A DNA stretch of 50,773 nt, counting the filler, from Perkinsus olseni (taxonomy: Eukaryota), in assembly GCA_013115125.1 (NCBI GenBank). It is 2 parts of 2 records of this genome, joined end to end, with 100 filler letters (N's around TTAATTAATTAA, not from the genome) between each part and the next. Parts side by side here need not be neighbours in the genome. Positions count along the whole stretch, not along the records: positions 1 to 25,410 come from JABANN010000497.1; positions 25,511 to 50,773 come from JABANN010000498.1. The stretch is one strand, 5' to 3'. The translations under genes were made by a program, and so were the position numbers. The notes below the pieces were generated by a model, which worked only from the letters and a program-made list of their open reading frames with translations, was not told where the DNA came from and ran no database searches. Of the stretch, positions 7,688 through 50,603 are shown piece by piece; the first letter of the stretch is position 1, and each line of letters starts with the position of its first letter.

Positions 7688-7709
7688 CGTATAGACTGTA
7701 CGGTACAGT
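7688..7709. repeat. 22-bp 7+8+7 scar (target CGTACAGT, 1 mismatch)
   Basis: CGTATAG-ACTGTACG-GTACAGT. Confidence 0.75.
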
Positions 7710-8214
7710 TGATTAGTCTCTTCTGAGGAGTCTTTGCGCAGCGCGAAGGTTGGGCCCTACACGCCGTCCGAGAGTTCCCTCGGCTGATAGTCCGAGTTCA
7801 GATAGGTGGATACATCCTCAGTTGTGGGCGGCTGGGCAGCCCTGAAAATCCCTAGACACTGCCAATTATGGTGATGCCCTATGTCGAGCACGTCGCTTCT
7901 GCTTTGCTCCGCCGGTTTTGACTTACTGTGTTACAGTAAGGTTGAACTGAACGAAGGACACTAGTGGCAGCGCGTGGTCAAGTAGACGAATTACTGCGGG
8001 CTACGACTAGGGGACGGGGTTCTCGCGAGACTGTTATGAAACTCCCTTTGCATCAATATGCACGCGTGTCAAAATGACAGTATCTTTGCGCATGCGTGCA
8101 GATTCCTTGTGTGGGCTGTCGTAGTTTCGCAGCATAACGATTTTCTGCGCCCAGGCCCTTTGCGCTCCAGAGTCACCCTTATCGTCCGGAGACTACCTCC
8201 CTTGTTTCACTCAC

Positions 8215-10675
8215 ATGCCAACCGTGACACCCTCCCACACCGACAACATCACTGGCGGGTGAGAATTCCGTGTCGCTTCATCCAATGATGATCTCCCCTT
8301 GGCAGTTCAGTTAAGGCTCTCAAGGAAGATTCCTTCGTGTCCGAGCTGAAGCACAAGTACCTCTCTACGCCCGATGACCCGGAGGAGTACGCTTGAGAGA
8401 GACCAGCGGTTTGAGAGCTCCTCGCTCCCGTTCCACCGTCTGCTCGTCGATCAGCGAAGATGCTTTTAGATAGTATTGATTGAATTTTTCCTCTAAACAT
8501 CTAGCCACATCTCTATACTCAGAGCGACGTCGGCTTGCACGCCAGTATCGGTAGCATCATTCATCATCGTTCATTATTCTCAGATACATCAGTTTAGAAG
8601 ATGCCCGCGGAGCTCACAACTACCATCCCCTTCCAGTCGTCCTGGCCCGTGGTGAGGGCTGCTATGTGTGGGATGTCAAAGGAAAGCAATATCTTGATTT
8701 CTTGTCTGCGTAAGCTCCTGTTGGAATATGGCCCATTCCGCTTTACACGCTTCGACGTCGCTCCTCAGCATTGCTCTTTATGAGAGCTACACGCGCTAAT
8801 GTCATTTTTACGTTTCGTTGATCGAATTTTATTCTTTCGTCGCTTTCGTTTCATTCATCTTTGAAATGAGTGCCAGAAAACGACAAGTGATAGCGGCAAC
8901 TTCCTCGCCTTTTGGTTGAGCGGTTGAGCTCCCCTACAGATATTTCCACTAGTGGCATCATCACGGCCAAATGATGATCATTTTGACGCAGTTGTTCTTT
9001 TCGGTTAGATACTCTGCTGTTAACCAAGGCCATTGTCATCCGCGCATTGTCGCTGCCCTCGTTCAACAAGCGCAGAAATTGGCGTTAACAAGTCGGGCGT
9101 TTCACAATGAAACCTTGGCGTTGTTCACCAAGTTCATGACCGATTTTTTCGGGTGAGGCGGATGGTCCTCCGCTCGTCTTCATCAGTTTGGTCTGCGTCA
9201 GTTACGATAGAGTTCTCCCTATGAATAGCGGAGTAGAGGCGGGAGAAACTGCCTGCAAATTGATCAGAAGGTGCGCCGAAATTAACTGCTTTGCTTGCTC
9301 TTATTGCCTTTCAGGTGGGGTTATGAGGTGAAGAGAATCCCGAAAAACAAGGCTGTCATCGTTTTCGCTGAGGACAATTTTTGGGGTGAGTTTCCGGTGA
9401 AGGGCGTCAAAGTTTCCATTATGAGTAAATTAGTGTATACACCGAGTCTTTGGTTCTCTCCGCTGGAATCAATGGTGGACGTTGCAGTGGTATTCCGCTC
9501 TGCATTGCGCACGGCATCGTGGCTTTCAGGCCGTACGTTGGCTGCGTGCAGCTCCTCGACCGATCCAGATTGCTACAACAACTACGGTCCCTTCTTGCCT
9601 GGCTTCGAAATAGTGAGCTCTCGGAGATTACGCTCGCCCGTCTGCGGTATCTTCGATCTTGAAGGTGCCGTACAATGACGTCGATGCGTTGAAGAATCTA
9701 TTTGAAAGCAACCCCAACATCGCGGGCTTCTACGTTGAGCCCATCCAAGGCGAGGCCGGCGTGAACGTCCCTGATGACTCGTACTTGCCTGCGGTCCGTG
9801 AACTCTGCACCAAGTAGGGCGCCACTTCGCCCCCGTTGGAGAGTGGATCGCCATCAGGCACAACGTGCTGCTGTGTTGTGACGAGATTCAGACCGGCCTC
9901 GCTCGCACAGGAAAGTTGCTCTGCTGCGATCATTGGGGCGTTCGCCCGGACATTCTGGTCGGTCTTCGCTAGTAACACGTGGCTTAACAACTCCGGCAGG
10001 TTCTCGGGAAGGCTCTCAGTGGCGGGATGTATCCTGTTTCTGCGGTGCTGTCGAGTCATGAGATTATGTTAACCATCAAGCCTGGGCAGCATGGTTCCAC
10101 GTAAGATACCTTCAATGGGCCTCTCCCTCACTCTATTCAGATACGGTGGCAATCCAATCGCCTGCCGTGTAGCGATGGAGGCTCTCTCCGTTATCAAGGA
10201 CGAGAAGCTGGTCGAAAGAGCCGATCGGCTCGGTGTGATATTCCGGGCCAAACTAGAGGAAGGCATCGGGAAGATGACCTGGGTGAAGCAAATTCGAGGT
10301 GGGTATTGCCGCTTGGATTTCTCCATCCAGTTCCCATGACCAGGTAAAGGTTTGCTGAATGCTGTTGTATGTGATGACACCTTCCGTGATAAGGTGAAGG
10401 CTTGGGACGTAGGGCTTCCTCATCCCGTTACTAGGTGGTCTACCGCGATGTCGTCGTTCAGGTTTGCTTGGCCCTCCGTGATGCTGGTCTCCTCGCCAAA
10501 CAGACTCACGATAATATAATACGCTTTGCTCCTCCACTGGTCATCCCGGAAGTCCGTCGAGTGGAAAAATTTCTTTGATCACTTTTTCGGCCCTTTTCAG
10601 GAAGCCATGGAGCGAGCTTGTGACATTATCATTGACGTGTTCAAAACTGTCGACGCGAAAGTTGCCGGTCCCTGA
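8215..10675 (+). CDS. OAT: Ornithine aminotransferase (class III PLP-dependent), multi-exon
   Basis: Spliced translation: [121 protein letters not shown]. Stop TGA 10673-10675. The 5' exons are less certain. Confidence 0.95.
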
Positions 10676-11669
10676 AAGAGAACCTCGCCCGTATGAATAA
10701 ACATGAGTTGTCATTTCTCTCATCGATTAGTGTTTTCTCATTTCGTTATCATAGACCGGCCCGTAGTGTCGAGTTGAACCCTCACGTGGGGGTGCTCACG
10801 TGCTCAATATCTTACGGTAGTCTCGGGAGCGATGCAAACGATGGCACAGTTCGTTGCTGATTTTGAGAGGCTTGCCATCATCTGAGCACCCGTGGTTGCT
10901 CGACAGCCTCTCGTTTTCACATTCTCTCTCCCTGAGGAAAAGAAGAGAACTCGCATATAAACGAGCGTATTCGTACTCACTGCGTCTATTGCTCGCTCGC
11001 ACTTATCTAGCTAAGGAGGGATGACGTGGTGGATTTGATCACGGGCCGTGCGGTTCACGGTCAGATGCTCTGTGAATTGAGGCTCCAGTCTGAGGCGCAC
11101 AAGGCATTGGCCTCTGACGAAATTCCCTCCCGTCTCCCGTTATGGGGTCTTAGGGATTCACCGCCTCTCCTCAGTGTTGGACCGTGTGCGCGGGGGTGTC
11201 AATGAAACGTGCCGGTTATAAGCAACGCGAGCACATAGAGAAACAAGGCTGCACTCGCCGTCCCAGCACACCATGTCGTTCCGTTTGTTCTTGGTGAAAA
11301 GCACTGTTAGAGACGTACGCGTTCTAGGTCCAGCTTCCTTACAGTGAAACGGTCAGGACCCCCCTCTTGGAGGCTCACCACAGGGAGCTACTTCTGATGA
11401 ATGAGGCTACAGTCCTCCCCTACACTCGTCACCCGAGCGTCGACGAGAGGAAATATCTGGAGAGTGCGAACCTAGAACGGCCCCAACCTTCCTCAGCGTG
11501 CGTCTTCCCCTCCGTCGCCCAGCGTGAGGTTCGGGTCTTCGCTGGAATCCAGAGCTAAGTCTGACTGTTGCGGCTCGGGCTCATCTAGGAACTCACTATC
11601 GAACTGATTCGCCGAACTCCGGTTACTCTTTAGACGATCTGGCTGTGACAGTTGGACCATCGGAACCGG

Positions 11670-11691
11670 CGTTGGAGTCCAACGGTTGGAC
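11670..11691. repeat. 22-bp 7+8+7 scar (target CGTTGGAC, perfect)
   Basis: CGTTGGA-GTCCAACG-GTTGGAC. Confidence 0.9.
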
Positions 11692-12527
11692 TATGAAGTT
11701 TATAGTATAAACTCACACACCATTGGACGCTGGGCATTATGGTGATGATGAAATTTGTTGCCAAGGGAATCTGCGACCATTTTCGAAACTTTTTCGAAGC
11801 TCCTATTGCTCCAACTGTTCCACGACACTGTGCGCCTGATTAGTCGAAGCTACGCAAAGGGCTGACCGATAATACAAGTTTATTCCCTGGAGCTCCAACG
11901 AGGGGATCCAGCCTAGGTAGAATTTATACGAATAAGTGGTAGTTGGTCCTTCATCCACCCACGGTTCGCACAAGAACTGTCTTTTGTTCGAGCGCAGTTT
12001 CCGCTGAGACGACTGAATATGGAATGAGATATTCTCCGTCACACAACTATCGACTCCACGAGAAACATACCGATCCTAAAGCGTAGCCTACGGACATGAG
12101 ACGTTACATTGTTGAACTTACATACGGCGACAACTTCTATTAGATCGCAGTTGCACTGGTGAGAGAGGCTCGATGGGACACGAATTGAACGAATGGGCCC
12201 ACAATGCGCTATTGTATCTTTCGGGTGGACGCATTAGCGCTGTGCGCGGATAGATTTTCTCCGCAATTATTTGAGTCCAAAGACTTTTGTACTCCAAGGA
12301 CTCAATTGTATGGTAAAGGTCTCAACTACCATTAGCGTCAATTATATAATGGAAACGATATTATTATAGTCGGCATGCACGTTATGCATCCTATGAGCCT
12401 TCAGTTGCTACTCCGCACGAGTACGGCGAACCTGACAACCTGCTAGCGGTATTGGGAGCTGCAGATATGATCGCAACTTGCGCTGCGGAACCTCATTTTG
12501 ACTGCTGCCGCTGGATCGATTCCTTAG

Positions 12528-12640: not shown

Positions 12641-13552
12641 TCCGAACGTTTGGACATGTTTTTTAGGGCAACATCGTTCAGTACCTCGGGGGGTTCTCAA
12701 CAAGATGCCAATATGGTACTCTGCTTTCCGTGAGCAGCAATATAACACAGCTAGCGACTAGCACTCAAGTCAATCACACATACATGGTAAAGATAAACAC
12801 GACTGTGATACACATTACAGTGATGAACATGATGCACATGATAAACACGCTAATGAAAAACTTGATAAAAATGAGCAAGCGGCTTTGATGATGGCCCGCA
12901 ATCAGATCGCACATCTTCAGCCGTTTATGTGGCAGCTTCGACAGCCTCCCAAAAAAGGCGGGAACCCCTAAGAATGTAGATACGTAACATCAAACGCTCC
13001 CGCTATGGACACAGGACTCATCATGGGCGTAAATTATGAATCTGTGACGAGAACCCCTAGAATAGTCTTGCTCTGCTGGTTATTCTGATGTCCACTATCC
13101 TGATGTCTGACTCTTCCAAGCACAGAGCTGTATGTCAGTCCTTGCTACGATCGACTACCGCAAATTAGCTTGTATGCAGTACGAGTTATCCATTTTCAGC
13201 GCGCAAGGCATTGGTAGGGCGTCCCTATGCCACTTATTAACCTTTCCGACTTCCCGTTACCTCGGGACTTCCATAAGTGTGAAAATAAGACGAATCCACA
13301 ATTTTAAAGAGAAGACGAATCGCTAGGAGCGATTCGCTCCAGCGGCTCCTCACTGAGGGGGAATTATTTTATGAACGATCTTCTTAATCATGAAACTTTC
13401 TCTATTCCCACTGACAATGTTAGTCATCATAGTGGGCCGCTGCAATGACTACCACGCAGAAAAAAACGCAGCTGCCGCGCCCAGTTCAACGCAAGTGGAG
13501 TTGAGCAAGGACACAACGATCATAAGCAGAACAATTACTATGCTCCACCCTC

Positions 13553-15787
13553 TCACCTATCAATGAGACTTTCTTTCCACGCGGTGGTCCTCACGTAGAA
13601 AAAATCTCGATTATACTCAGCCCACCTCGAATGATCATCAGGAGAGTGATGGAACCTACACGATGGAATAGCCACAGCCAACGCGCCAACCCAACCGAGC
13701 AGCTCAGCCATCGCTCGGATCCCACACTCAGCCGCAGTATTTCTAGCCAACTATATCAGTTTATGCGAATAACAATGAACGAGAATGGCTCCGTCGAAAC
13801 ATAGTAGAGTTTAACACAGGGATACTATATAGCCATGGGGACTTTTATATTTATTTTTCATACAGTAGCTTTATTAAAAATGCTATGAGTGCAATAGAGG
13901 GCAGCAATTCACCCAACACTTGTGAGCTGACGCTTTATCGCGGCACTTCTCCACGACTACACTGCTGCCGAAGAAAAAGCCCACTAGAACTGAGCACATC
14001 GGTGCGACCGATTCGGTGGAAGTTCAACTAAGACGCCTCCGGGATTGGCTTTTGATCTCGCACACACCACCATCCGCCATGCGATAGTTGATTGTCAACT
14101 TACGCCATATTCTCCATGATCATGATGGGCAAACCCCGAATGCCGCTAAGCGTTCCAAACTCTTGCGCGACGCAGCTCACCCGAGTGCCGTTGGTACTGA
14201 GACAAGGTCTCGTTCACGCGGGAAGAAAGATACCAAAAAACGCATCCGAGGTCGAAGCTTGCCTTCTGCGCGTTCAAAAGGTGCTAGCATCTCCTCGAGC
14301 CATATCGTATCCACTAACAACGTCGGCCCCGAGGCCTGGCTGCTCACGCCCTTCGACGGTGCCCGAACAGCGAGCGCCCACGCACTCTATGGGAGGGACA
14401 TCCGACGGACTTCGCGATTTCACCAACGTCGAGAAAAACTTGACCTGTGGCAAGGACGCTGATTTTCAGTAGAAACTCTCCTCGTGACTCACAGACTCGG
14501 AGTCGCTGGTGATGAGCGTATCCACTCCGCTAGGGCCGAGTCCAGTATGGGCGCCGATGATTGTGGCATCTCCTTCGAATATCTTCAGATCTGCGAATAC
14601 CTGCGGTGACGCTATTCAGCAACATACTGTACAAGACGGCGGCCGGCCCTACTTGTGTCAAAATCTCGTACGAGCGTTGCGGTTTTTGGCCACCGTAGAA
14701 CAGCCCGGAAGGTTTCCAGTACTGCCCGTTCACCACCGCGCGTTTAATGTAACTGGTACCGTACTTAGAGGTTTCCCTAAGATTCCAGCTGCTTGTACAA
14801 CACCAACGATATTCCCGACGAGTTGCTAGGGCTCAGCCCTTCAGGCAGCCATCAAGGTCTGAGAAATAATGTTCCTAAGGCCACGCCGAGACTAGGAAAG
14901 ATGTTCCTTATGAGCGATTATGATCATTAAAATCATGAAATTACCGGAAAACGTTGCTAGCCGTTCTGCAAGTCCAAAATTCGTTCTCACCGGGAACATT
15001 TCAAGTTTCATGATTTTATCTACCTCTTGACCTTACCAGTGTGCGCGACCTCACTCTACCATTTGACAGGGTCTAGCTAGGAAGCTCAGACGGTTTCCAA
15101 TTTACCCAAACGGCGAGCGCTTGAAAACTCAAAACGGAAGAGTGTTCCGCATGGCAGCTCCACCGTCTCACCGGGCCATTGTAATAGCCGATTTATAGAC
15201 AAGCGTTGGCACGGTCATCCTTCGGGGGTTGAATATGGGGTCCAAGTGGACGTATCTGTAAACCATGGATGTTCCGAGTGTTGGGAATGGCCTCCTCTCG
15301 TTCGTTAACAAGATAATCAAACTCGTGAGGCTCCAGCGCGTTCCTGTTCAGCTCGACATTCTCTTCATTAAATCTTCTGTAGTGCGCCATGCCGTAGGGA
15401 TTCACAGCATGGACAAAAACCTGACAGACATGCAAGTAAGAAAGGAAATCTACAATGATGGCGTCAGATTTCACCGCTCCCCGAAACGAAAGTCCCCCAA
15501 CCTTACCAAAGTTTTATCTATTTTTTTAAGGCGTCCCTCCTCCCTAGCCTGTCTTATCTGGTCCAGCAGGTAACACTGGATACCGGAGCCGCCGTAACCC
15601 TACACACCATGTACGCCAGATGTGTGCACGACACTCCCGCCTTTGGGCTCTTTCGTCGGTCGCAGGACAGCCACGTCCATGATGTACTCATCACCATACC
15701 CACTAGCGGGCACCACTTCGAATGACTTCAGCTCGAGACCGGCTTGGGTGGCTAGAGTCCTGAACTTGGTTCGAGCTACGTAGTAAC
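13553..15787 (-). pseudogene. DUF2817 / M14 zinc-carboxypeptidase-like gene, probably pseudogenised
   Basis: Exons give SYYVARTKFR, VVHTSGVHGV*GYGGSGIQ (TAG at 15602-15600), HAVNPYGMAHYRRFNEENVELNRN, GQYWKPSGLFYGG, HTGLGPSG, QEFGT and DFFYVRTTAWK. First and last exons not located. Confidence 0.75.
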
Positions 15788-17142
15788 TACGAAGACCAAC
15801 ACATTAGTTCAAGGAGAAGACGCGTGGGGAAAAGTTGGTTAGATGGGGGGAATAAGAGGTTTCCAGATGCCAAGATCGGGCGTTTATTTATATATGGGTG
15901 ACCCAAATCTTCACACTACTGCCGTTCCAGGGCCCGAAAATTGAGTTGCGTGTTACGGCAACACGTTAAGACCCGGAGGGTCATCACCTAGCCACAAGAG
16001 TATCCACACACAACACTTCACGAGGGTCTTGTGTGAGGCTACTGGCGAGTCATGAACAATCGTCACGGAAGTTTTTTATTAGAAGAGAACCGTCGTCGTT
16101 TCTGTTCCTGCCAGGCGATAGGCTAGAACAGGATGCATCGCCGAAGTCGATCTGTCGTTGGCAAGACACGTAACGGTCCACACCGCTATAATCACAGTGA
16201 AATGACGGATTATGATTTTACTAGAATACCATCATCTCCATAAAGAGCTCGAGTTCGATTGGCCACTACTTTTCGGAAAAGAAGCATTCCGGACGTGGTG
16301 GGGTACTGCTGTCTTCGGTATCGGGGCGGCGGTCACACAGAGGCGGGTGATAGCCGCAATGCGACAACGTGAGAGCGATGAGTAGGTGGATGAGGCGTAC
16401 AAGCATCGGAAATATGATGAGGGTAACTACAGCTCACACATGAGCGTAACACAGTGATATAGTGAACAGTGTTACATCGCCTTTTAAGGCTCAAATAGGG
16501 TCCTTCCCAGTGAAGACCCGGTATCCGCTGCAGAATCAGAGCCATGTCTCGTCTCTTACAGCGAGCGAGGACGCAGCAGAGGCGAAATGCGCGGGCCCCG
16601 ACCGAATTTGTCTGTCTTCGGTGGAAAGGTGAAGTGATGGAACTGCCGGATGGACGCTCCACCCATCTCTCGGAGGGATTCCCTCCTCTCCCCGAATGTA
16701 GAGGTAGGGCATTACAATTTGCTGACTCGGTCGGAAATGGACACGGAGTCCGGGAAATCCCATAGACGCCAGGGTTGGGAGAGGCACTGAAACCAGCCAA
16801 GCACGAACCTGTAGCCTGTATCCGGGTACCGCGCGTGTGTCCCACTGTTGTTAGGGAACCTACGCTCCACGATTTCCCCTCCAAGAAAACCTTGGCTCGT
16901 TTTCTCTACACAGTAATTTCTGGGGTATCCTACTGAATACTGACTGACAAGTTCTCATCGCCTGCTCAAGGTAAGAAGCTATCAGAGATAGCGGTGTCAT
17001 TTTACTGACTCTGTCAGTGACTATTCACACTCCCAACCTCGGCATCATGGAAGTTCCATTACTCCCAATCATGACCAGCCACACACAATATAGCGATAAC
17101 TGTATGCTTTGTAATGAGAACAAGCTGATTCGGTCGTCCATG

Positions 17143-17213
17143 TGTCACTAGTAGTGACATAAATAGCAGTGGAATTAGTCGTAGTGACTCACTACTACTA
17201 ACCTCACTGCTAT
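17143..17213. repeat. Long-palindrome scar (target GTCACTAC)
   Basis: Left GTCACTA-GTAGTGAC (17144-17158) and right GTAGTGAC-TCACTAC (17181-17195). The filler between them is an imperfect ~25-bp inverted copy of the right flank. Confidence 0.75.
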
Positions 17214-17846
17214 ACATTCATCCTCGAATTCATCACCTACATGGGACCTCTCTTGCGCGACACTTGACATCACATTTCAAGAATCGCAACGAGATATTTG
17301 ACATTTCACTCGTGCGTCGAACGCACTCCGGTCCAGTGACGCCGTTTGTTGCGAAGTGGCGCGAGCACCTCAATGCTCTGCATGATCTGATGAAGGTCAC
17401 TCTGGAGTTCCTCGATGCTCATCCTGGGCGGCAGATTACCCGGTTTTGCTGCTAACAGAAAAAGCAGCCGCCGCTAGGATGAAGATGAAGAACTGAAGAC
17501 ACCATGCAATGGTGACCATCGCGTGATACACAACGTTGGCTTGCACGCCTTCGAAGTGCTCGCGTCGTTTGCGATAGAAATGTTTGTTTATAAGTCGAGC
17601 AAAGAAATGCAAAAAGCCAAGCCGCCCGCAACAAGCGGGAAGAATATATTACTGAGCTGCTGGCAAATGTTGAGGAACGGTGTGTGGTATCCAGTAAGAC
17701 TAGAATGATCTCAGGAAAACAGTGAAGACTGTGGTTAGTAACAACAAGCTTATGCTGTAAACTTCCCGACCATCAAGCTCCGACGGAAATGGCAGCCGCG
17801 TTGCTGCTCGAAGTTCCGTGGCGAAAAAGCTCGCATCTATTCGCGC

Positions 17847-18767: not shown

Positions 18768-18775
18768 CGTTGATC

Positions 18776-18890: not shown

Positions 18891-19698
18891 GTCAGGGCAA
18901 TACTTATTTGAAGTTGCTCAATGCTCAGCCAGTTCCCGGCGAAGATTCCATCCTTCTGAAGGATGAAGGGTTCCTTCAATCCTTCGCATCCCGATAGATG
19001 GTCTCTTTCGAAGCCGAATGCAATCGGGGGGCGCTATCACCTCCTTGACGTCCTCGGCTCAGTCGAGGAGCCCTTGGAACGACAAAGCTGTGCTGTCGAG
19101 GGTGCGAGTAGAAAGGCCCAGTTTCAACAACTCCACAGTCTCCACAGCAACTGCTCAATAACGCAAGGTCCGAGTTCTGCTGTCAAGAGCCGAATATCAA
19201 ACCATATTCGGCAGGCAAGCTCCGCCTGACTTTCAGACAGACTGTGACAGAGTACTCCTGGTGACTGTGAGTACTCCGGGAGGAAAACAGCGCTACTTTT
19301 ATGCCAACACTGCCGATATCCCTCTGACAGACAGAGTCCGTCAGAACGCTCGAGTCTCTGGATGTGAGTCTCAGATTCCATGTGCTGGCAACCTGATTAT
19401 GTGTGTATGAGTTTATAGTCCAACGCCGGTTGTTCCGCCTTAGTCAGACTCTTGCGAATGTGCACAGTTGGAGACTTTCTGTAGGATTGACATGCGGCGC
19501 AACCAGATAGATTGTCAAGAAGCTCTGACTATGAGCTCTGCGTTGTCTTGTTCAATAAGAGAATTTTTGTTATCGGAGAACACAGAAATCTGGCCGATTC
19601 AATCTGTTAATATAGCCGTGCTGAAATGAGAAGTACTGGAAGTGGTAAACCCGTCGGACTTCATATCGACTACGGTATTCGGAGTACGTGTCTGGGGT

Positions 19699-19720
19699 GC
19701 CAGGTAACCTGGCCCAGGTT
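19699..19720. repeat. 22-bp 7+8+7 scar (target GCCAGGTT, perfect)
   Basis: GCCAGGT-AACCTGGC-CCAGGTT. It is abutted by the odd palindrome CGCTAGTC-T-GACTAGCG (19721-19737), and a 32-bp imperfect palindrome lies at 19765-19796. Confidence 0.9.
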
Positions 19721-20244
19721 CGCTAGTCTGACTAGCGCACTGCAGCCGACCGGACTACAGACTGATGCCTCCTAGACTACTGTAGTTAGGAGGCATTGCT
19801 ACAGACCCCAAAAAGAATGTGACCTGATGGATTCTCGCAGACTAGCAGAACCGGCTACTTCCACGTGCATGAACTATAGTAGGGAGGGAGTAGAAGTTGA
19901 GAAATGCGAACAGTGCTACTTACAGTGCAGACCCTCCGGCATGCGAGTTGGTGCCACGGCCAGGATTCCGCAGAAGTAAGCCCGCGAGGTACATCGTGGA
20001 TAGCATCTATCCGATAGCTGCCCGACTTGCGAATTCCGCAGCGCGAAAAGAGCAGAATCGCTTCCGCGCGTCTTTCCGCGCTCTTTCGCGTACCGAATAA
20101 TTTCCGCATGGTGAGGGTCTACCAATGTGGAGTAACCCAGAATATGACTAACAGTAAGGCAAACGATACGCTGCGCATCCTGTGTTACTCCGCACCCATC
20201 TGCTCGTCATCATTCTTCCGCATGGTCCATGCAGTTGCTGAACC

Positions 20245-21073: not shown

Positions 21074-21704
21074 ATAGCTCTCAACATCTAATGTTGAGTC
21101 TCATGGCATTTCGAGTGTCGTGATGTCCTTGACAACAATGCTGATGATGAGGATGGTGCGACACCATTGGTGTTTATTGACAAGAGGATCACCCGTGTTG
21201 TGTGAAATACGAGTTAAACGCGAAATGAGTATTAAGGCCTTTAAACTAAAGGGATCAGAACGAGTACAGCGTTTGTACGTTGAACGCACACCGCCATAAT
21301 GAGTGACGGGTTGTAACGCGTGAGCGTGAACAGACAATCACACTCCTACCGGAACCAACCGCACACCGAAGAATCATGAAATGCTCCAAGCTAAGCTGCA
21401 GACTACCTACCAGTCTGTTGATGAACAAGGGAGTCTGAATCGAAGAAATGTCTACAAGCGCGAAAAAAAAACGCAATTCAGTTGATGGTTCCTGATGGCC
21501 GAGTTTCTTTATCCTGAAAGGACTTGCTAGCGTTCAGGGAGTTGATGAGGGTAGATCATTATTTGTCGGGTATTGTAGCGCTTGCTGCCTGGCATGGGCG
21601 CAGATTATGAAGCCCTGACAATGAGGTGTAAAGTCTCTTTCCCCCCTACCGGGTTGGGGGAAAAGGGACACCTGCGCAGGGTTGGGCCTACCCTGCGGTC
21701 CTCG

Positions 21705-40230: not shown

Positions 40231-40434
40231 ATGGCTGAGGCGACCTCAGTGAGGTCCCTCAGGATAAACAGCCTTCATATTTTCGTCGGCTCCGTGGTGT
40301 CTTCGGCGGTCGTTTCCTAATAGGCCTGCATATTATACAACACATAGTGAAAGGCTTCGTCTGTGGCGGTGGTGATAGCGGCTTAGCCGGGACGCCTATT
40401 GACTTTCGTCTTGAGAGATTACAGTGACCTACAG
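40231..40434 (+). pseudogene. BT1 transporter exon-1 pseudogene fragment
   Basis: Near-identical to 42702-42902 but with a +14-bp scar just after the ATG, further indels and no downstream exons. Confidence 0.9.
40235..40256. repeat. 22-bp 7+8+7 scar (target CTGAGGTC, 1 mismatch) with an unscarred paralog
   Basis: CTGAGGC-GACCTCAG-TGAGGTC. The paralog has only CCGAGGTC at 42706-42713. Confidence 0.9.
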
Positions 40435-41096: not shown

Positions 41097-41328
41097 CCGG
41101 ACCCAGGCTCGGCCGGAGCATACGAGTAGAAGATCTATTCTGTGCTACTGTATATTTCCGTTCTACTGTAGAACCCAATTAGAGCTTCATCCTCCTCATT
41201 CACACCGGAAGTTATATTGTAGACAGTGTCTGCTAGACTCCATCTCTGTGGACGAATTTGTCGACCTCCTGAGCTGTAGTGATGACCAGAAATTGAGCCG
41301 GGAAGCGCCAAGTTAAGACGGAGTTGAT
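41097..41328 (-). pseudogene. Truncated paralog of the 37932-38738 secreted gene
   Basis: Translates INSVLTWRFPAQFLVITTAQEVDKFVHRDGV*. The start codon is ATC, there is an internal stop, and the 3' part is missing. Confidence 0.8.
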
Positions 41329-42701: not shown

Positions 42702-44981
42702 ATGCCCGAGGTCCCTCCGGATGAACAGTCGTCTTATTTCCGTCGGCTCCGTGGTGTCTTCGGCGGTCGTTTCCTAATAGGCCTGCATATTATACAACAC
42801 ATAGTGAAAGGCTTCGTCTGTGGCGGTGGTGATAGCGGCCTAGCCGGGACGCCCATTGACTTCGTCTTGAGAGATTACAGAGTGTCTGGTGCTGACCTAC
42901 AGGTAACCCGATATGGCTGTGCCGAAACACTCTCGCACCGGGGACGGAATCTTTTCATCTTTCTTTATGCCACTTTCAGCGACTACCGTTGTCGAACTCG
43001 TAGTTAGCTTCACCGCTAGCGTCAGGCGTCGGTCTGAGACGACCGGCTCCCACTCACTTGCGGGATAGACCGAACGACGGAAGGGTACTTCCTCTTTTCT
43101 CTCAGGTATACCGGAGTGCAGTCGGCATCCCTTGGAGTGTAAAGCCTCTTATAGGTCTCCTTAGTGACCGTCTACCTCTTCTCACCTTCCACAAGCTCCC
43201 TTACATGTTCCTATCGACAGTGGTCGCCGTCGTTGCGATGGCCGTCCTCGCCCAGAAGCCCTCAGCACTCATCATCGCCTTGGTCTGTTTTTTTCTCATT
43301 TTCCTGCAATGCTCTGTGTGCGATCTCCTGTCCGAGGGGATGTATGCTGCTAAATTGAAGAAGCACCCGAGCTGTGGTCCCGACTTGGTCACCTTCGTCT
43401 GGGTCGGTATATCCATTTTTCGAACCTTCAGTGTCGTACTAGCAGGCCCTCTCATAGACACCATCGGCCCCTTCTCTGTCTACTGGATTGCCATACCATT
43501 CGCCGCGCTCCTCCTGCCGGTGGTCGTTTTCAATCTACTCGGAGAGCCTCGTGTGACTCCCGAGACTGATTCCGATGCGAACAGGAAGCCTGTATTCTGG
43601 GAGATGACGTGTTTGTCACTCGTCACTGGGCTAGGCGGTCTTTCTCTGGCGATCTACTCGATCATTGAGACGCAGGTGAGGTCGTGGGTTCAAATCCCAC
43701 GGCATGTATTCCTAGGTCTTCAGTGAGGAAATGCCACCATCGCGTCAGCCTGTCGTAATCGACGACAAACAGTTGCATCGCTCCGCCGAGCATCGAATTC
43801 AGTTACATCGCAAGTGCCTGGCGGCTGGTGTCCTCGGGCTTGCAGTGGTGTCATTATTCACTCTACTCACACGCCCATTGATAGCAAAGCAGAACCTCTT
43901 CATGTTCATACAGAACTGTGTAGCAACGGATGCTTCGGCCTTCTTGTGATTTCGAATATGCTATTCATATAGTAAGGATAACAGCGACACTTTTTATACC
44001 GTCAGTTCTCAACACGACCCGCGGGCGGGCTAGTCGGAGCATCCAGCAGTCTCTCTCGGGGCTGCGAAACTACTACGACAGCGCGATTGAACGGAATCGA
44101 GTTGGTGCGGTCAGATGCACTTCGGAACACACGGCGCTTCCTTCTACTTCTTCACTGACACTCCCGAACAATACCCCGAGGGACCCCACTTCGACACGGT
44201 TTTTTACACGACAACTCTAGGTGAGTGTCCCGGCGTAACGCCGGCGGCGTTCCTTGAGACGGTTGAGTGTCACCCCCTGGCCCCTTCAGGAGTTGTCGCG
44301 TCCGTCTGCAGCCTGGGAGGGATGTACCTCTACAATCGTTACATGAAACATTGGCACTACCCGTGGATCTTCTCGTTCTCCAGCATCTTATGTTCAACTG
44401 TTGGTCTACTCAACATCGTCGTCTATACTCGCTTCAACGTTACCCACCTCGGAATTTCTGATAGAATTTTCGTAATTTCCTCCTCGGCACTAGGCATCGT
44501 GCTCGGTGAATTCAACTGGATGCCCGCTATTGTCCTCCTTAGCCAAAGCTGCCCCCACGGTTTGGAGTCCACCATGTACGCTTTGCTCGCCGGGGCAAGC
44601 AACCTGAGCGCTAATTTGTCCGGCTACTTCGGTGCTATGATTCTCGATCAACTCGGTGTCACCCCTGACGGTTCCCCTGATGAAGGGTCTAAGTTTTCAC
44701 GTCTATGGGAGGCGAGTCTGCTGTCGTGTGTTGCGCCATTGGTGCCGTTGGTGTTGGTACGGTGGCTAATACCAAATGCCCGGCAGACCGATTCATTGTT
44801 GATCGAGGAGCCTTCGGATCCTTGCCACGACAGCCTGTGGCGGAGAATAAGGTCCGCGTGGCGCGGAAGGAAAAGTGCCGGCAGTTTTGTAGAGATAAAA
44901 ACTGAAGAGCTCGATACGTTGACGGACGGCGAGAGTGATTGTAGTGAGGAGGTGAGCAACAGGGGCCTACTCTCTTGTTGA
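42702..44981 (+). CDS. BT1-family folate/biopterin (pteridine) transporter, MFS, multi-exon
   Basis: QHIVKGFVCGGG, IPWSVKPLIGLLSDRLPL, CSVCDLLSEGMYA, FYFFTDTPEQYPEGPHF, WMPAIVLLSQSCPHGLESTMYALLAGASN, plus many hydrophobic helices. Confidence 0.93.
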
Positions 44982-45275: not shown

Positions 45276-45297
45276 CTCGTCAATGACGAGTCGTCAT
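45276..45297. repeat. 22-bp 7+8+7 scar (target CTCGTCAT, perfect)
   Basis: CTCGTCA-ATGACGAG-TCGTCAT. Confidence 0.9.
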
Positions 45298-45370: not shown

Positions 45371-46060
45371 CTTCGCCACTCGGGCTGTATCATGACCCCT
45401 AGTTTAACTTTTCGAGAGCATCTTGATGGCAGACTAACGCTCGCGAAGCAGGCTGGAAATGTTGCAATCCGCCAATGTGGTGCTGTTATGGGAAAGAGAC
45501 AGGGCGGCCCTGTCAGAGCCTATCGGTGAGTGTTCGTAGAGATTTATAAAAGGATCATCCTCCCAATTATTCTTTATGCTCACGGGGTTTGGGGCTGTTT
45601 CATTGGCAATAGATGTACCAGAGACAAAATTGATTCAGTAGGATCGGCTTTCCTCAAAAGAGCACTCAGAGTCAGAATGAGCACCTCCCCGAGGTCGTTG
45701 TATATTGCGTCAGGTGTTATGCCCCTTTCGCATCTTGTAACGAGAAGAATAACCATCACACAGATGTGTAGATCCGTCGCGTTCGTGTTCATTACACCAT
45801 TACTCACCTGTAGATTTACATGAACTTCTCTTCCTGAGATCGGCAACACATTACCAACAACGACCACCAACCAGGAACAAGCTGCAATTGTCAGACTTTC
45901 AGACACTTTAAGTATGCTAACTTAGCATTGCTGAGTATCATACTTAGCATTCCGACAGCCGGAGGGACTGCAGCGACAAGGCTCAATTCCTTAAAAATGT
46001 GAATCACGCTCTTTCCAGAACAACAAGTCGCGATGAGTGTATACACTGATTGATCTCAGT
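45371..46060 (+). mobile_element. Decayed non-LTR retrotransposon: RT thumb region and RNase H start
   Basis: GCIMTPSLTFREHL...IYKRIILPIILYAHGVW...LKRALRVRMSTSPRSLYIASGVMPL, and VYTD*S near 46038 (VYTDGS-like). Stop codons present. Confidence 0.7.
45914..45935. repeat. 22-bp 7+8+7 scar (target ATGCTAAG, 1 mismatch)
   Basis: ATGCTAA-CTTAGCAT-TGCTGAG. Confidence 0.8.
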
Positions 46061-46723
46061 TCATGGATAATCACAACCCGTTCAGAGTTTGGTTAGCCAA
46101 TGATTGGTGTTGATACCCAATTGTTGTGGCCGTGGCGTTGTGTTAAGCCTGTCCCCCTTTCGTAGCTTATTGTTGGCACGAAGCTTGTCACGCCGCAGCT
46201 GCCGGTGTAGACTATTCTTGTATTGTATGTTCTATAGTTACTTTCTATACTTCTTCTACTTGTGTTGAGATGACTGGGACGCCACAACACTCTACGAACG
46301 ATGAGGGCAACAACAATTGACTGCCAATCACTTCGTGTTCCCCGACCGAAGAGCCCGACTGAACAGGATTGGAGAGCCAGCTCGTTGGCTGGTAGTCTTG
46401 AACATTCAGGAACCACAGCCGTTCCGTTGGATGCACACGAACAATTATAAGAGAAGAAAGATTGAAACTAAAGTTGTATGTGCCACAAATAGATCCAAGC
46501 ACTCCGTGAATCGATAAAAAGTTTTAATTTAAAACCCCCGTCCCGAATCCAGAAGGAACACTTCCTGGCAGTCACTGCCAATAACGGTGAGGAAGGCGCA
46601 GCCGAGACGTCGAGCCTTGAAACCATTATCCGCGACTGTCACAGCTGGGCGTTCGCGTATCAGGAAAGAGAGAGGCTAAGGAGGTTATTGGGCACCCGAC
46701 CTATGATAAGCCTGCTATCAGGA

Positions 46724-46745
46724 CCCGAACCGTTCGGGCCGAACG
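46724..46745. repeat. 22-bp 7+8+7 scar (target CCCGAACG, perfect)
   Basis: CCCGAAC-CGTTCGGG-CCGAACG. Confidence 0.9.
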
Positions 46746-47494
46746 AGAAGCAGAAAGACCCACAAGGGATACTACAGGGGAGACCAGGGCATTCAGTTCG
46801 TTATCTACACGCCCCAAACCAGCCGATCACTGTGGAAGCTCTTTCACCGACCGTCGAAAAGGCAGAGTTCGGGTCCACGGTGCGCTGCCTCGGTGTGCCG
46901 CCTCAAGGCAGAGTTTGTTACAAGCCGACTCGCCTTTCCGTCTCTCATAAGGCTCGACCGAAACGCAAACCTACAGTCAAGACGAATGGCATGGCTGCAG
47001 TGCAGCGGCTGCCCCACCTAGTAAATTCGAAGCGACGTGAACCTCTGCGTCCACGATGCGCAGCAAGGCGCCCACAAAGCAAGTCGGGAGTTCATTCCTT
47101 ACACGCGGAACAGTAGTATTAAGTTCCAGTTCGATCAGAGCCACCAGCGGTGGCCTACTACAAAAACAAGAATAAGTGACCCCGTGAAGTGGTTCGGGGA
47201 GATGAAGATTGCCCTTCTCATCTCCCCCTCGGTGTTTTTATTCTATGAGAAAACCCCAAACCTATCGTGCCTTATCAGGCTGGGCCCGAATGACACACCA
47301 AATTTCCTACGCCAAAAGGTTCTATGGGTTGTATCGGGAAAGCCGCTGAAGTAGTGTCCAGTGGACACTCCTTGAGAAATTTCATGCGCCAAAATGTCCC
47401 CGGATGAGCCGACTCGGATGATGAATCGACGAGTTCATGTTCATCCTGGACACCCGGGATGTACACAGTAACATTCCTCCAGTTGGGGTTTCCG

Positions 47495-47516
47495 CCCTTA
47501 CGGTAAGGGCCTTACC
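47495..47516. repeat. 22-bp 7+8+7 scar (target CCCTTACC, perfect)
   Basis: CCCTTAC-GGTAAGGG-CCTTACC. Confidence 0.9.
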
Positions 47517-47870: not shown

Positions 47871-47947
47871 CAAGATACTACCACCCCCCACCCCCACTAC
47901 AAGAGTCTTGTAGTGGGGGTGGGGGTGGTAGTATCTTGTAACAAGAC
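47871..47947. repeat. 68-bp odd-centred palindrome; long scar (target TACAAGAC)
   Basis: Arms of 34 and 33 bp around G47905. Left is TACAAGA+G; right is ...TCTTGTA+ACAAGAC (47941-47947). Confidence 0.85.
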
Positions 47948-48070
47948 CCCGGAGCACCCAACTTGGGTGACCCAAGTCACCAATACAGAGCGTACCACCC
48001 ACACTCCTACTACCGGACAAAGGAAAGCTGGGATTATTGGCAACTATTGTCGGATAGAAACTATCCATTA

Positions 48071-48092
48071 CCCCAATGATTGGGGCCCAATC
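48071..48092. repeat. 22-bp 7+8+7 scar (target CCCCAATC, perfect)
   Basis: CCCCAAT-GATTGGGG-CCCAATC. Confidence 0.9.
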
Positions 48093-48121
48093 TGAGATTG
48101 ACAATCTCCCATAGGTTTTTC

Positions 48122-48187
48122 GCACATATTATATGTGCAAAGTGTGTCCCGTTAAATATGTGACAAATATAACGGGACACACTTTGC
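48122..48187. repeat. Double palindrome; long scar (target about CACATATA)
   Basis: GCACATAT-T-ATATGTGC overlaps a 51-bp palindrome GCAAAGTGTGTCCCGTTA...TAACGGGACACACTTTGC. Confidence 0.8.
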
Positions 48188-48714
48188 GAGTGGATGGGGT
48201 CGCAATCAAATGCTAACAGAATGATGGACGCACATGAGAATCAAGCGACTGCTATTATAGCATATCGGGGCCCGATATGCACAACAGGGAGTTGCTACGG
48301 TCATAGGGAGGCCGATAGTGAGTCACTATTAGTCACTGTCGAGTCAACAAAATGAGTGAATGAGTGACCCCCCTTGGGAAGGCCAAGCAACGTCGATGAG
48401 TCATCGACGATGACGACGTTATGGTTGAGCGGATGAAAGCTGAGTTACATATCTAATCACCCAGATTCAAAACCATGAACATCCATGTGTAGAAGTTCTA
48501 TAGTGGCGTTTGCTGAGGGGCGCGCCAGGATCGATAAATTCAGGGGAATGATAGATAGCTGGGGTTTTACGGAGCATGAAGTCGGGCAAAGTAGTGAGCA
48601 ACAATCGACCATAAAGCAACAACTTGAGATAGTTAGGGACTACGTCATAGTTCGTATGGTGTCAACCTTATCCGACAGTTTGCAAAGGGCACTGCGGAGT
48701 TCTAGACAGAGGGA

Positions 48715-49002: not shown

Positions 49003-49193
49003 AAGGCTAACCTTGAAATGTACGACAGATGCGTAATACGGGGGGGGGGGTTATATTAGATTCAGGTGCCCGTAAGAATGTCAGCTTTCGGTTAGAGGGA
49101 GTCTAAGCCAGGGTATGGACGTTTTGGGTCTCGGTGATGATGCTTGTGGTCGACAGACTGTGCGATGCGCTAGTGTTTCGTGGTCGTGCACAG

Positions 49194-49215
49194 CCCCCGC
49201 TGCGGGGGCCCCGCA
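49194..49215. repeat. 22-bp 7+8+7 scar (target CCCCCGCA, perfect)
   Basis: CCCCCGC-TGCGGGGG-CCCCGCA. Confidence 0.85.
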
Positions 49216-49419
49216 GCTGTGAGAAGCGGATTCTGCCGGGAGGAAAGAACATTCCCCAGCTGACGATGACCTCGCTCTGAGAGCAACGTTTTTTGGCTTG
49301 ATGAACAGGGCCTATTTAACAGGCTGAACTAATCCCCCTCTGAAAGGTACGTCGGCGTTAGTCAAACTAAGCCATACTGTCGGCGTTGGACTTCAAACTC
49401 ACACACACGGCCCGGTGGA

Positions 49420-50603
49420 ACCCGAAGGTGCTGCGGTTGTAGCCCATCTACGGCATCTTCAACATGACAGCTCTATCAGTAATACCACTGTCGTTGCAAG
49501 ATCAGTCACTAGGCGGCGCTCTCATGAAACGACTCGAAATGCACGTATCCGCCGTGGTGAAGTTAGCGATCATATTCCACAGTTCTTTACCTTCGCATGC
49601 CAAAACCCGACTCGAACACAAGACAGCACAGGATTGGGCTACAATCTAGACTCAGCGGCTCGATAAGACAGATATACAGCAATATCCATATACAACCGCC
49701 GCCGACCAAACACGACAGGGAACTATGCCGATATACATAAATGAATCGGACGCTGAACCTGCCCCTCAGAGAGACTAAAGGGGAAAAAATTGGTATGCTA
49801 CCGCACACGCGCAACAGTTACCGGTCAGGGCATCACAGCTTGCTTGGACGAAAGTTCAGATCGCGCACGAGGGTCTTGCAATGGGCTGACACTTGCCGCT
49901 AGCTGAGACCGGCGGAGCTGTGTGCCAACGTGAGGTAACGATTCCGGCTCGAACTGTACCTCCAAGCACGTGTGCTTCCCAAGTATGTATTTCAGATTAT
50001 CTCAAACTTACATCATTTACCATCGATCGTCGTTGACTTTTTTGCCTCAATATCGTGGTGTTGCCTCCGCCGCCCGGCCCTTATCATTTTGGTTATCACT
50101 CTGGACTGTCTATGAACACGAGTGAACTCGTGACGAGTACGTCTGCACTCCTGCGACTGGTCAGCGGTGGTATCACAGTTGTTGATTGATCAGCTCGTTT
50201 CTGCTAACGTGCCCTCCCGCTCCCTGAGTTCGAAATCGCTGAGTCGAGCGTAGTGTATACTCATACCGTATGAGTCATACGGAAGTTGGCCGAGTTAGTC
50301 TACCATCGAGTAAGACCGCCGTCCCATGGAGACCCTCCTCGCTGCCCTCTCAGCCTACCACGGTATTTGACAAACTGTTGCCGAACCCCTTCGCCGCCCG
50401 CTCCACTCGGACTTGGGAGAACACTAGACACATTGGACATAGAGGTAAATGATAACAAAGACTATACGAGGCCCAGAAAGACTTATGAGGGCTCAATTAA
50501 GGAGGCGGACGAAACTCAGCCGTTTCATAACCGCAACCGTTTCAATGCACTCGCCTGCGCACGCCGGGCACTTAGAACATCGGAGCGACAAAGAGCCTAT
50601 TAG
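49420..50603 (+). mobile_element. Highly decayed Penelope-like reverse transcriptase remnant
   Basis: Motif relics in the expected order: IYSNI (~49675), EGLAMG* (~49870), LDTLDIEV (~50425), ARRALRTS (~50560). Many stops and frameshifts. Confidence 0.45.
50260..50281. repeat. 22-bp 7+8+7 scar (target CTCATACG, perfect)
   Basis: CTCATAC-CGTATGAG-TCATACG. Confidence 0.9.

Follow-up and report, generated by a model that had tools for sequence, protein, structure and literature searches.

Stereotyped 22-bp scars in Perkinsus olseni, probable excision footprints of a transposon with 8-bp target duplications

Scars of 22 bp with the form T[1-7]+revcomp(T)+T[2-8], in which T is an 8-mer (7+8+7), are confirmed as a genuine sequence feature of DNA from the oyster-parasite relative Perkinsus olseni, and their signal is stronger than an earlier note on this DNA had it. 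They are probably excision footprints of a cut-and-paste DNA transposon with an 8-bp TSD, generated by hAT-type hairpin chemistry and annealed over the inverted TSD. The window, i.e. the whole stretch analyzed, comprises 50,773 nt of assembly GCA_013115125.1, with JABANN010000497.1 at positions 1-25,410 and JABANN010000498.1 at positions 25,511-50,773.

Abundance and geometry of the scars

A full scan of the window identified 17 perfect scars, 13 with one mismatch, 8 with two and 18 with three, whereas 10 block shuffles yielded 0, 0, 0.1 and 2.0, respectively. All 14 coordinates in the earlier note (10 perfect, four one-mismatch) are correct. Its list of perfect copies was nevertheless incomplete, lacking those at 22367, 28134, 30484, 36841, 44230, 47955 and 48393, and its density of one scar per 3-4 kb was too low. 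Scars with up to two mismatches occur about once per 1.3 kb, and about once per kb if degenerate and split forms are included. The 7+8+7 form makes up ~85% of recognisable events and is the dominant product among the footprints in the window.

Perfect scars (7+8+7; coordinates without strand):
11670..11691, abuts the scar at 11691, the targets sharing 1 nt
19699..19720, scan
21705..21726, scan
22367..22388, scan; not in the earlier note
22409..22430, scan
28134..28155, scan; not in the earlier note
30484..30505, scan; found in X1/X3 contigs; not in the earlier note
36841..36862, within an unbroken contig of X7 (guessed RNA), 3' part of a minus-strand gene
44230..44251, within a ~67-nt GT-intron of a BT1 transporter gene
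45276..45297, single 8-mer in divergent strain X9, probable empty allele
46724..46745, scan
47495..47516, scan
47955..47976, scan; not in the earlier note
48071..48092, third segment re-used by the later scar 48087
48393..48414, scan; not in the earlier note
49194..49215, scan
50260..50281, scan

Scars with one mismatch (without strand):
7688..7709, scan
11691..11712, scan
13319..13340, scan
16665..16686, scan
25233..25254, scan
26378..26399, scan
26588..26609, scan
40235..40256, exact +14 against the paralog at ~42700, where the 8-mer is single; also in strain X9
45499..45520, scan
45914..45935, sits inside the junction of split footprint 45902-45946, which is older
46514..46535, scan
48087..48108, overlaps scar 48071
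48315..48336, scan

Scars with two mismatches (without strand):
13998..14019, scan
17500..17521, scan
19998..20019, scan
21153..21174, scan
21784..21805, scan
23146..23167, scan
46559..46580, scan
46993..47014, scan

Degenerate scars with three mismatches (without strand):
33652..33673, within intron 33133-33718 (GT..AG joint, run X7)
41219..41240, +14 relative to paralog copy A (single 8-mer)

Among the 18 three-mismatch windows, three are perfect scars overlapping themselves, and the classes with zero to three mismatches (17, 13, 8 and about 13-16) are roughly flat. Such a spectrum fits a steady process, as it is what constant input and decay would give. The very heavy past transposition deduced in the earlier note is not required, because the flat spectrum fits a steady input, about 0.006 scars per substitution, for which a small number of active elements could suffice.

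The geometry is highly specific. Over k=4-13 and seven offset pairs, the sole outlier was k=8 with offsets (1,1), with 17 perfect copies versus 0. Sixty shuffles at k=8 gave a mean and a maximum of 0, and the window scan found no perfect copies at k=5, 7, 9 and 10. The sharp peak at k=8, which the earlier note had proposed to look for genome-wide, is present in the window, and the geometry that it had derived from an 8-bp TSD and a hairpin offset by 1 nt on each flank is the sole enriched form. Four copies occur at k=6 versus 0.1 in shuffles; one of these is of low complexity and another lies within a degenerate 8-type footprint. One 9-bp analogue is located at 4137, and 2-3 analogues of 6 bp were seen. 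Odd-centred palindromes with arms of at least 7 nt number 68 versus 2.8 expected, whereas even-centred ones of the same arm length (2 versus 1.8 expected) are at chance level and 2-nt-loop palindromes number 3 versus 2.1.

Scars as insertions in paralogs and strains

Comparison of an in-window paralog pair (38.6-40.6 kb and 41.2-43.1 kb, ~85% identical) identified three scars or footprints as insertions, with a single 8-mer in the other copy. Two of them, 40235 and 41219, each add exactly 14 bp to the copy that has the scar. The divergent strain X9 (~95% identical) retains the older scar 40235 with 0 gaps and shows what reads as one 8-mer, with retained flanks, at the position of perfect scar 45276. 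This young scar thus appears to be absent from X9, being the one young scar judged in that strain among the matches listed. Of the allelic states that the earlier note had suggested comparing, the scarred (+14) and the single 8-mer state were observed, whereas the window contains no element-filled allele.

Contigs from runs X1 and X3, which are public and stem from two studies, are identical to 30400-38687, 39367-40313, 40353-41459, 42810-46178 and 46286-48722 (0 differences, 0 gaps) and contain the scars there, although X1 or X3 may itself be the source of the window sequence. The earlier note had regarded a lack of scars in reads or other assemblies as grounds for rejection; with the same reservation on their source, the X1/X3 contigs carry them. 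An assembly or sequencing artefact is scarcely credible. The window has two N gaps and is therefore a scaffolded draft, but the scars are reproduced without differences by contigs from the runs of two studies, show graded decay and form clean +14 events in the paralog and strain comparisons.

Mapped scars are located in introns (44230, 33652), a 3' transcribed region (36841) and a pseudo-exon (40235). The last lies directly 3' of the ATG in duplicated pseudo-exon 1 and shifts the frame. Wherever exon maps could be made, the statement of the earlier note that no scar interrupts an intact exon holds.

These comparisons also bear on programmed DNA elimination, in which a domesticated transposase would remove germline-limited elements with 8-bp repeats and the assembly would represent the processed genome. 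Domesticated transposases serve DNA elimination in ciliate alveolates, and numerous scars with zero resident elements in 50 kb would agree with it. However, the scars are paralog-specific and have a flat point-mutation spectrum, and therefore were inherited as scars. One scar appears to be missing in a ~95% identical strain that retains the flanks, and Perkinsus is not known to have nuclear dimorphism. This explanation is very improbable.

Split footprints and the proposed excision route

Nine split footprints consist of two odd palindromes 14-55 nt apart that imply the same 8-mer, whereas 20 shuffles yielded 0. They have a pair of inverted copies or long palindromes in the flanks, and their arms of 34, 25 and 18 nt are inverted flank sequence.

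Split and asymmetric footprints (without strand):
790..825, split; pair of odd palindromes pointing to one 8-mer, with 21 nt between their centres
17144..17195, split, 7+8+22+8+7; both inverted T copies retained, right palindrome arm ~25 nt
18950..18978, split, 7+8+7+7; a directly fused pair of inverted copies, one base short
21644..21693, split; arms ~18 nt (left) and ~11 nt (right)
29127..29196, split, degenerate; centres 55 nt apart
41125..41174, split, T[1-7] + 28 nt + revcomp(T) + T[2-8]; 42-nt insert wholly missing in paralog copy A
45902..45946, split, older, hit a second time; encloses scar 45914
47871..47947, asymmetric; left-flank odd palindrome 34+1+34, then two P nucleotides and T[2-8]
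48123..48187, split; odd palindromes of 8 nt and ~25 nt that point to one 8-mer

The split footprints are un-annealed hairpin ends, as predicted by the hairpin model. At 21644 both inverted copies differ identically from both direct copies, which the simple form of the model does not predict.

According to this model, an element would insert and duplicate its 8-bp target T. The geometry suggests that the excising transposase nicks the DNA one nucleotide inside each flank, whereupon the flank 3'-OH would attack the opposite strand and close a hairpin at each chromosome end, with the complement of the TSD base adjoining the element at its tip. Nick and hairpin chemistry of this kind is established for hAT elements. 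The anatomy of the footprints shows that the host opens the hairpins 8 to about 34 nt from the tip rather than at it, so that each end acquires a palindromic tail that includes inverted T. The inverted TSD, exactly 8 nt, is where the two tails would be complementary and could anneal; flap trimming and gap filling would then produce T[1-7]+revcomp(T)+T[2-8], for a net gain of 14 bp. About one event in seven would instead end in direct joining of the tails, leaving two inverted copies and longer palindromes. The scars would afterwards decay by point mutation and persist only where +14 is tolerated, i.e. in introns, UTRs, intergenic DNA and pseudogenes.

An origin without a transposon is quite improbable. 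In such a process, a polymerase active in replication or break repair would switch template over a short distance or be primed by a fold-back, copy 8 nt from the opposite strand and switch back. Template-switch mutations (four-point model) resemble the scars in producing local inverted copies and sequence that can form hairpins, but they vary in length, comprise a single excursion and would account neither for a constant 8+1 geometry nor for double inverted copies with flank palindromes. Polymerase slippage does not explain why the length is exactly 8 nt and the offset 1 nt on either side, other k and offsets are unenriched, and even-centred and 2-nt-loop palindromes remain at chance level. 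In the split footprints, two separate inverted T copies each run into their own inverted flank and therefore represent two independent palindromic ends rather than one excursion. In favor of switching, the window lacks a filled allele and an element, filler in some footprints (41125-41174) is akin to nearby sequence, and short-range switching is described as a source of inverted copies in other genomes in the excerpted text of PMC7954356.

Candidate enzymes and relation to known systems

The target logo is nearly flat. Position 2 is T (position 7 is A) in 27/76 symmetrised sites, and positions 1 and 8 show only a mild preference for S. The fit to nTnnnnAn proposed in the earlier note is thus weak. 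Ac-type hATs have an nTnnnnAn bias that is stronger than in the scar targets. None of the 128 window ORFs of at least 88 aa contains a transposase domain, and a window scan for TIRs with TSDs (exact 8-bp TSD, 12-nt TIR, up to two mismatches) returned one candidate versus 1, 1, 0, 0 and 0 in shuffles.

For Hermes and hobo, Zhou et al. 2004 and Atkinson et al. 1993 are said to have described an 8-bp TSD, a first nick one nucleotide into the flank, flank hairpins and empty sites with inverted flank duplications. The window scars differ from these systems in their far weaker target bias, and element and transposase were not found in the window. V(D)J coding joints (RAG plus Artemis) and Transib share with the proposed route hairpin-capped flanks that are opened off-centre to give P nucleotides. 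RAG/Transib hairpins are blunt and give even-centred palindromes, and the Transib TSD is 5 bp, whereas the window is enriched solely for odd-centred palindromes with 8-bp spacing.

The same hairpin-and-anneal route could be driven by a non-hAT enzyme, such as a MULE, a Merlin or Dada relative, an unknown 8-bp-TSD superfamily or a domesticated transposase mobilising non-autonomous DNA, but this is unlikely. Such an enzyme would suit a target logo in which hAT-type bias is not strong, as well as the 9-bp analogue at 4137 and the 2-3 analogues of 6 bp. However, TSDs of MULEs are typically 9 bp, whereas k=9 gave no perfect copies in the window. Merlin is not known to use hairpin chemistry. In the excerpts of PMC8101967, P. 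marinus harbors intact ORFs related to Merlin, with no TIRs or TSDs that could be recognised, and those of PMC3706591 report Dada transposons from P. marinus, but with TSDs of 6-7 bp and copies in tRNA genes. The MULE Muta1 likewise yields flank hairpins and has 8-9-bp TSDs, but the excerpts of PMC5499845 describe a hairpin of 43+43 nt in which an offset is not evident and >90% precise excision in yeast; perfect copies of a 9-bp form are missing in the window. The 1-nt offset is documented for hAT elements in the excerpts of PMC5873905 and PMC1978519.

In the same excerpts, Ac/Ds footprints from yeast, Arabidopsis and Candida are P-nucleotide palindromes centred on the complement of the element-adjoining host base, with arms of up to 20 nt in yeast. 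The flank hairpins are opened by host enzymes and often joined via microhomology (PMC5873905; PMC1978519). Odd P-nucleotide insertions, flank hairpins, host opening and microhomology joining would be common to Ac/Ds and the window scars. Published hAT footprints are heterogeneous, with 28 types among 128 events and mostly arms of up to 3 nt in the Candida data excerpted from PMC5873905. In contrast, ~85% of the window scars are one product, in which both hairpins would have been unfolded past the whole TSD and then annealed. Such a single-form product is unusual. Moreover, the published Ac/Ds footprints, as excerpted, were obtained from reporter sites after induced excision (PMC5873905; PMC1978519), whereas the window scars are natural and occur about once per kb. 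No description of 7+8+7 as a dominant or genome-wide product was found in the literature searched. The papers found cover this type of footprint, but neither a dominant 7+8+7 product nor such a density. If their reading as transposon excision footprints is true, they would preserve a rare, legible history of transposition and of how this organism repairs DNA breaks.

Counts, spacing and palindrome classes of the scars

The scars have the form T[1-7] + revcomp(T) + T[2-8], where T is any 8-mer, i.e. 22 bp (7+8+7) with a net gain of 14 bp over a single 8-mer. All 14 coordinates reported in the earlier note carry this structure, 10 of them as perfect copies and four with one mismatch. The full window was scanned for such copies and compared with 10 block shuffles.

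Scar windows in the full window scan (expectation from 10 block shuffles)
0 mismatches: observed 17, expected 0
1 mismatch: observed 13, expected 0
2 mismatches: observed 8, expected 0.1
3 mismatches: observed 18, expected 2.0 (three of the 18 are perfect scars overlapping themselves)

A generalised pattern, T[1..k-a]+revcomp(T)+T[b+1..k], was scanned as well, with seven offset pairs and k from 4 to 13. Within the window, enrichment occurred only at k=8 with offsets (1,1) (17 versus 0), and all other offsets tested at k=8 gave 0. The peak at k=8, which had been set as a test in the earlier note, is sharp and seen at least within this window.

Copies found by k (mean of 60 shuffles)
k=5: observed 0, shuffles 0.8
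k=6: observed 4, shuffles 0.1
k=7: observed 0, shuffles 0
k=8: observed 17, shuffles 0 (maximum 0)
k=9: observed 0 perfect and one copy with one mismatch, shuffles 0
k=10: observed 0, shuffles 0

On inspection, two of the four matches at k=6 were clean; of the others, one lies in an ACGTC repeat and one within a degenerate 8-type footprint. The clean 5+6+5 analogues are located at 25078-25093 and 34278-34293, and an 8+9+8 analogue with one mismatch at 4137-4161. They may be due to chance, or to infrequent events in which 6 or 9 bp were duplicated.

The palindromes of the window were classified by their centre. Palindromes with a single unpaired base at the centre (odd-centred) and arms of at least 7 nt numbered 68 versus 2.8 expected, whereas even-centred ones with such arms were at chance (2 versus 1.8), as were palindromes with a 2-nt loop (3 versus 2.1); those with a 4-nt loop numbered 5 versus 2.5. 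An excess at loops 3 and 5 arises because odd-centred palindromes are counted again without their innermost pairs. Eighteen odd palindromes occur singly outside scars, one of which (38844, in an ACGTC-repeat region) was left out before further tests. At 4153, 19729, 24842, 26508, 26583, 28730, 28951, 47361 and 48270 there are lone odd-centred palindromes (arms 8-12 nt) for which a second half is not recognisable; they may be footprints with the other end resected or decayed scars. Direct 6-mer periodicity is confounded by microsatellites and was not used.

RAG and Transib enzymes form blunt hairpins, which open to even-centred P nucleotides, and make target site duplications (TSDs) of 5 bp. 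A joint of this type was rejected, as even-centred palindromes are at chance and k=5 gives 0 versus 0.8. MULEs likewise form a flank hairpin, with a TSD of 8-10 bp, usually 9. At k=9 there was no perfect copy and only one with a single mismatch, and excisions of the MULE Muta1 are mostly precise (PMC5499845); a MULE footprint was therefore also rejected. The spacing and the centring both agree with hAT excision: the enrichment at k=8 alone corresponds to a TSD of 8 bp, and the restriction to offsets (1,1), together with the odd-centred excess and even-centred palindromes at chance, corresponds to a nick placed one nucleotide inside the flank. In PMC5873905 the hAT rule is given as inserted palindromes whose centre is the complement of the host base beside the element end, and PMC1978519 is a second source on hAT excision footprints.

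Split footprints and a proposed hairpin-annealing mechanism

A search for two odd-centred palindromes that lie 13-120 nt apart and imply the same 8-mer, here called split footprints and read as un-annealed hairpin ends, gave nine cases in the window and none in 20 shuffles. A stricter version of the search returned four split footprints and 32 standard scars in the window, and one match in total over ten shuffles.

Split and asymmetric footprints
17144-17195: split footprint, 7+8+22+8+7; T is inverted twice, and the middle 22 nt are mostly the inverted right flank (arm ~25 nt)
18950-18978: split footprint, two inverted copies head to tail, minus one base
21644-21693: split footprint, arms of ~18 and 11 nt
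47871-47947: asymmetric footprint, a 34+1+34 palindrome of the left flank, then two P nucleotides and T[2-8]
48123-48187: split footprint, arms of 8 and ~25 nt

These footprints show two independent palindromic ends, each running into its own flank, and show that the hairpins opened 8 to ~34 nt from the tip. These un-annealed products are the strongest new evidence. A short template switch was rejected for this reason: a one-step switch leaves a single inverted copy of variable length, whereas the length here is fixed at 8 and the nine split footprints carry two inverted copies or flank palindromes. At 21644-21693 the two inverted 8-mers agree with each other but differ at one base from the two direct copies, a pattern not predicted by simple hairpin unfolding. 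Annealed products make up ~51 of the ~60 recognisable events (~85%).

In the mechanism proposed for these annealed products, T (t1..t8) would stand once on each side of an inserted element. The transposase is assumed to act as it does in hAT elements, nicking the flank one nucleotide in, after which the 3'-OH of the flank would attack the opposite strand. The left end would then form the hairpin t1..t7, t8', t7'..t1', and the right end, in top-strand sense, t8'..t2', t1', t2..t8. After unfolding, the left tail would end in t8'..t1' and the right tail would start with t8'..t1', and annealing over these eight bases would yield t1..t7 + revcomp(T) + t2..t8. The working is ours and agrees with that of the earlier note, whose geometry and two-hairpin annealing repair hold up, as enrichment is confined to k=8 with offset 1 and the split footprints have two palindromic ends. 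The hairpins would probably be opened by an incision of the 5' strand at some distance from their cap. Such incisions are made at blocked ends by the Mre11 complex acting with Sae2/CtIP, and in work by Yu et al. of 2004 this complex reportedly has a role in Ac repair in yeast. Annealing with flap trimming would dominate because the 8-nt inverted TSD would be the best homology on offer.

Polarity, rate and position of the scars

The window harbors a segmental duplication (copy A, 38600-40620; copy B, 41190-43100; ~85% identity), which provides direct polarity for the scars. At 40235, copy A contains a 22-bp scar, whereas copy B has one 8-mer with one base different and is exactly 14 nt shorter. 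A degenerate scar at 41219 in copy B corresponds to a single 8-mer in copy A. A 42-nt insert of the form T[1-7] + 28 nt + revcomp(T) + T[2-8] is present in copy B at 41125-41174 and absent from copy A. Thus, the empty and scarred (+14) alleles that the earlier note had proposed to look for are seen at 40235 and 41219, and an empty allele opposite the 42-nt insert at the third site. The duplication also carries a paralogous ORF of ~155 codons with a weak Ac45/VOA1 TM match, and the promoter and exon 1 of a BT1 gene; in copy A the BT1 exon 1 is a truncated pseudo-exon.

Contigs of public sequencing runs were aligned to the window. Those of X1 and X3, two runs from two studies, match long stretches with zero differences, scars included; either run may be the source of the window. 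Run X9, from a divergent strain (~95% identical), retains the older scar 40235 without gaps. At the perfect scar 45276, X9 shows left flank, single 8-mer and right flank and is probably an empty allele; its contig also lacks ~40 nt just upstream, which makes this alignment not unique. A second X9 joint (46089 to 46316) was considered as a filled site and rejected, as it is a plain-looking deletion with 4-nt microhomology.

The mismatch classes 0, 1, 2 and 3 contain 17, 13, 8 and ~13-16 scars. Similar class sizes are expected from a constant input of scars with decay by substitution. With ~15 scars per class and 22 positions in 50.7 kb, the rate would be ~0.006 scars per substitution, for which a few active elements would be enough. 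The paralogue pair gives the same order, with 2-3 events versus ~285 substitutions over ~1.9 kb of two copies.

Scar windows per successive 5 kb number 1, 2, 5, 8, 8, 8, 2, 1, 3, 17 and 1. Two 44-base N runs (25411-25454 and 25467-25510) lie inside the filler joining the two records. The interval 45000-50000 holds 17 of the 56 scar windows, and several sites there were hit twice. Run X7, presumably RNA, has a depth of ~0 over 45.1-48.4 kb. Local hopping might account for the excess, as might relaxed selection if the interval is an untranscribed spacer. Repeated hits are also evident in the fine structure: scars 11670 and 11691 adjoin, with a 1-nt overlap between their targets, the third segment of scar 48071 is re-used by scar 48087, and scar 45914 is nested in the junction of an older footprint. 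Local hopping is known for Ac, and the clustering and repeated hits would fit it.

The largest recognisable gene of the window encodes a BT1 folate/biopterin transporter, with a Perkinsus chesapeaki protein as best relative (72% identity); the next relatives, at 36-46%, are proteins of dinoflagellates and Amoebophrya. On this basis the window belongs to a Perkinsus species, though not to P. chesapeaki. Pfam matches among the 128 window ORFs of at least 88 aa comprise BT1, DUF2817, a cyclin C-terminal domain, a class-III aminotransferase, MFS_1 (in an ORF shared with a BT1 match), PorP_SprF (E = 0.0002) and the weak Ac45/VOA1 TM match. Rfam identified three tRNAs only (23.7-24.2 kb); these minus-strand genes (23731-24208) lie inside tandemly duplicated units of ~200 bp. 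The BT1 exons were mapped from the P. chesapeaki protein, which places scar 44230 inside a BT1 intron of ~67 nt starting GTGAGT. Scar 40235 directly follows the ATG of the duplicated, truncated exon 1 copy and shifts its frame. Among the joints listed, GT..AG joints occur only in X7, with at least 14 introns in the gene at 30965-35901, whose sole scar (33652, three mismatches) is intronic. A contiguous X7 contig covers scar 36841; the sequence around this scar, downstream of an ORF of 261 codons, looks non-coding. The earlier statement that no scar lies in an intact exon therefore holds wherever it is testable.

Candidate elements and significance

No element-filled allele was seen in the window or in the alignments examined, and no transposase domain was detected by Pfam among the 128 ORFs. 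One candidate, the same as in shuffles, came from a search of the window for 12-nt terminal inverted repeats (TIRs) enclosed by an exact 8-bp direct repeat. The target preference of the Ac family is nTnnnnAn. The target logo of the scars is nearly flat, with a weak R|S-T....A-S|Y pattern; once the sites are symmetrised, 27 of 76 carry T at position 2 / A at position 7 (~36% versus ~25%). The assignment of the enzyme to hAT or to another hairpin-forming element with an 8-bp TSD is unproven, as is a loss of classical end joining.

Two high-copy repeats were considered as MITEs, and neither fits the missing transposon. The repeat at 49304-49408 and 4530-4642 (~105-110 bp) has a (CA)n tail and no TIR; its copy at 4530-4642 sits between perfect 8-bp direct repeats, and it looks SINE-like rather than like a DNA transposon. 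The ~120-bp repeat at 41428-41549 and 38897-39025 has a contig depth of ~160x the single-copy level and no clear TIR. The paralogues carry it in opposite orientations, within an apparent inverted block of ~250 bp; in copy A its flanking 8-mers match at 7/8 positions, and X9 lacks 41430-41661. A further segment, 40405-41071, reaches ~180x single-copy depth in X1, and numerous contigs run out of the window at 41029 into a common continuation, which indicates a truncated copy of an abundant repeat.

In the Perkinsus literature searched on transposable elements, introners, palindromes and hairpins, with subscription journals and supplements mostly outside the search, no such scars and no report of hAT elements were found. 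Published work describes Dada elements in P. marinus tRNA genes, which they are reported to target (PMC3706591), Merlin-related ORFs in P. marinus (PMC8101967) and plasmid integration within transposable-element sites of this species (PMC8062965, PMC7200600), the latter worded 'within transposable elements sites' in Faktorova et al. 2020; PMC4423477 belongs to the same literature basis. Amoebophrya introners carry inverted and direct repeats (PMC7789003), a structure unlike the scars. The hAT footprint literature searched consists of reporter-site studies and one rice genome comparison, in which palindromes are unmentioned. The kind of event is already known; what appears to be new is that one stereotyped product dominates and that it occurs naturally in a genome at such density.

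It is conceivable, though rather doubtful, that the +14 palindromic insertion is a Perkinsus-specific mutational signature, produced by a hairpin-forming transposase (very low in copy number, hopping locally, or domesticated) together with distal hairpin opening and repair by annealing instead of classical end joining. If so, +14 would be among the commonest indels of the genome, at ~0.6% of the substitution rate and roughly one in ten indels of the paralogue pair, and hairpin-forming 22-mers would continually be seeded in introns, UTRs and intergenic DNA. Past excisions are normally invisible because cut-and-paste footprints are too short and too varied. A stereotyped product with 14 constrained bases is detectable without homology search, and would provide a datable, site-by-site record of every excision that can be counted, including repeated hits and local clustering. 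The T[1..k-1]+revcomp(T)+T[2..k] scan offers a simple test for other genomes, and Perkinsus annotators and population geneticists have a specific indel class to expect in introns and UTRs. The scars would also be a natural read-out of how hairpin-capped breaks are processed in an early-branching alveolate, with opening 8-34 nt from the tip and annealing on 8 nt.
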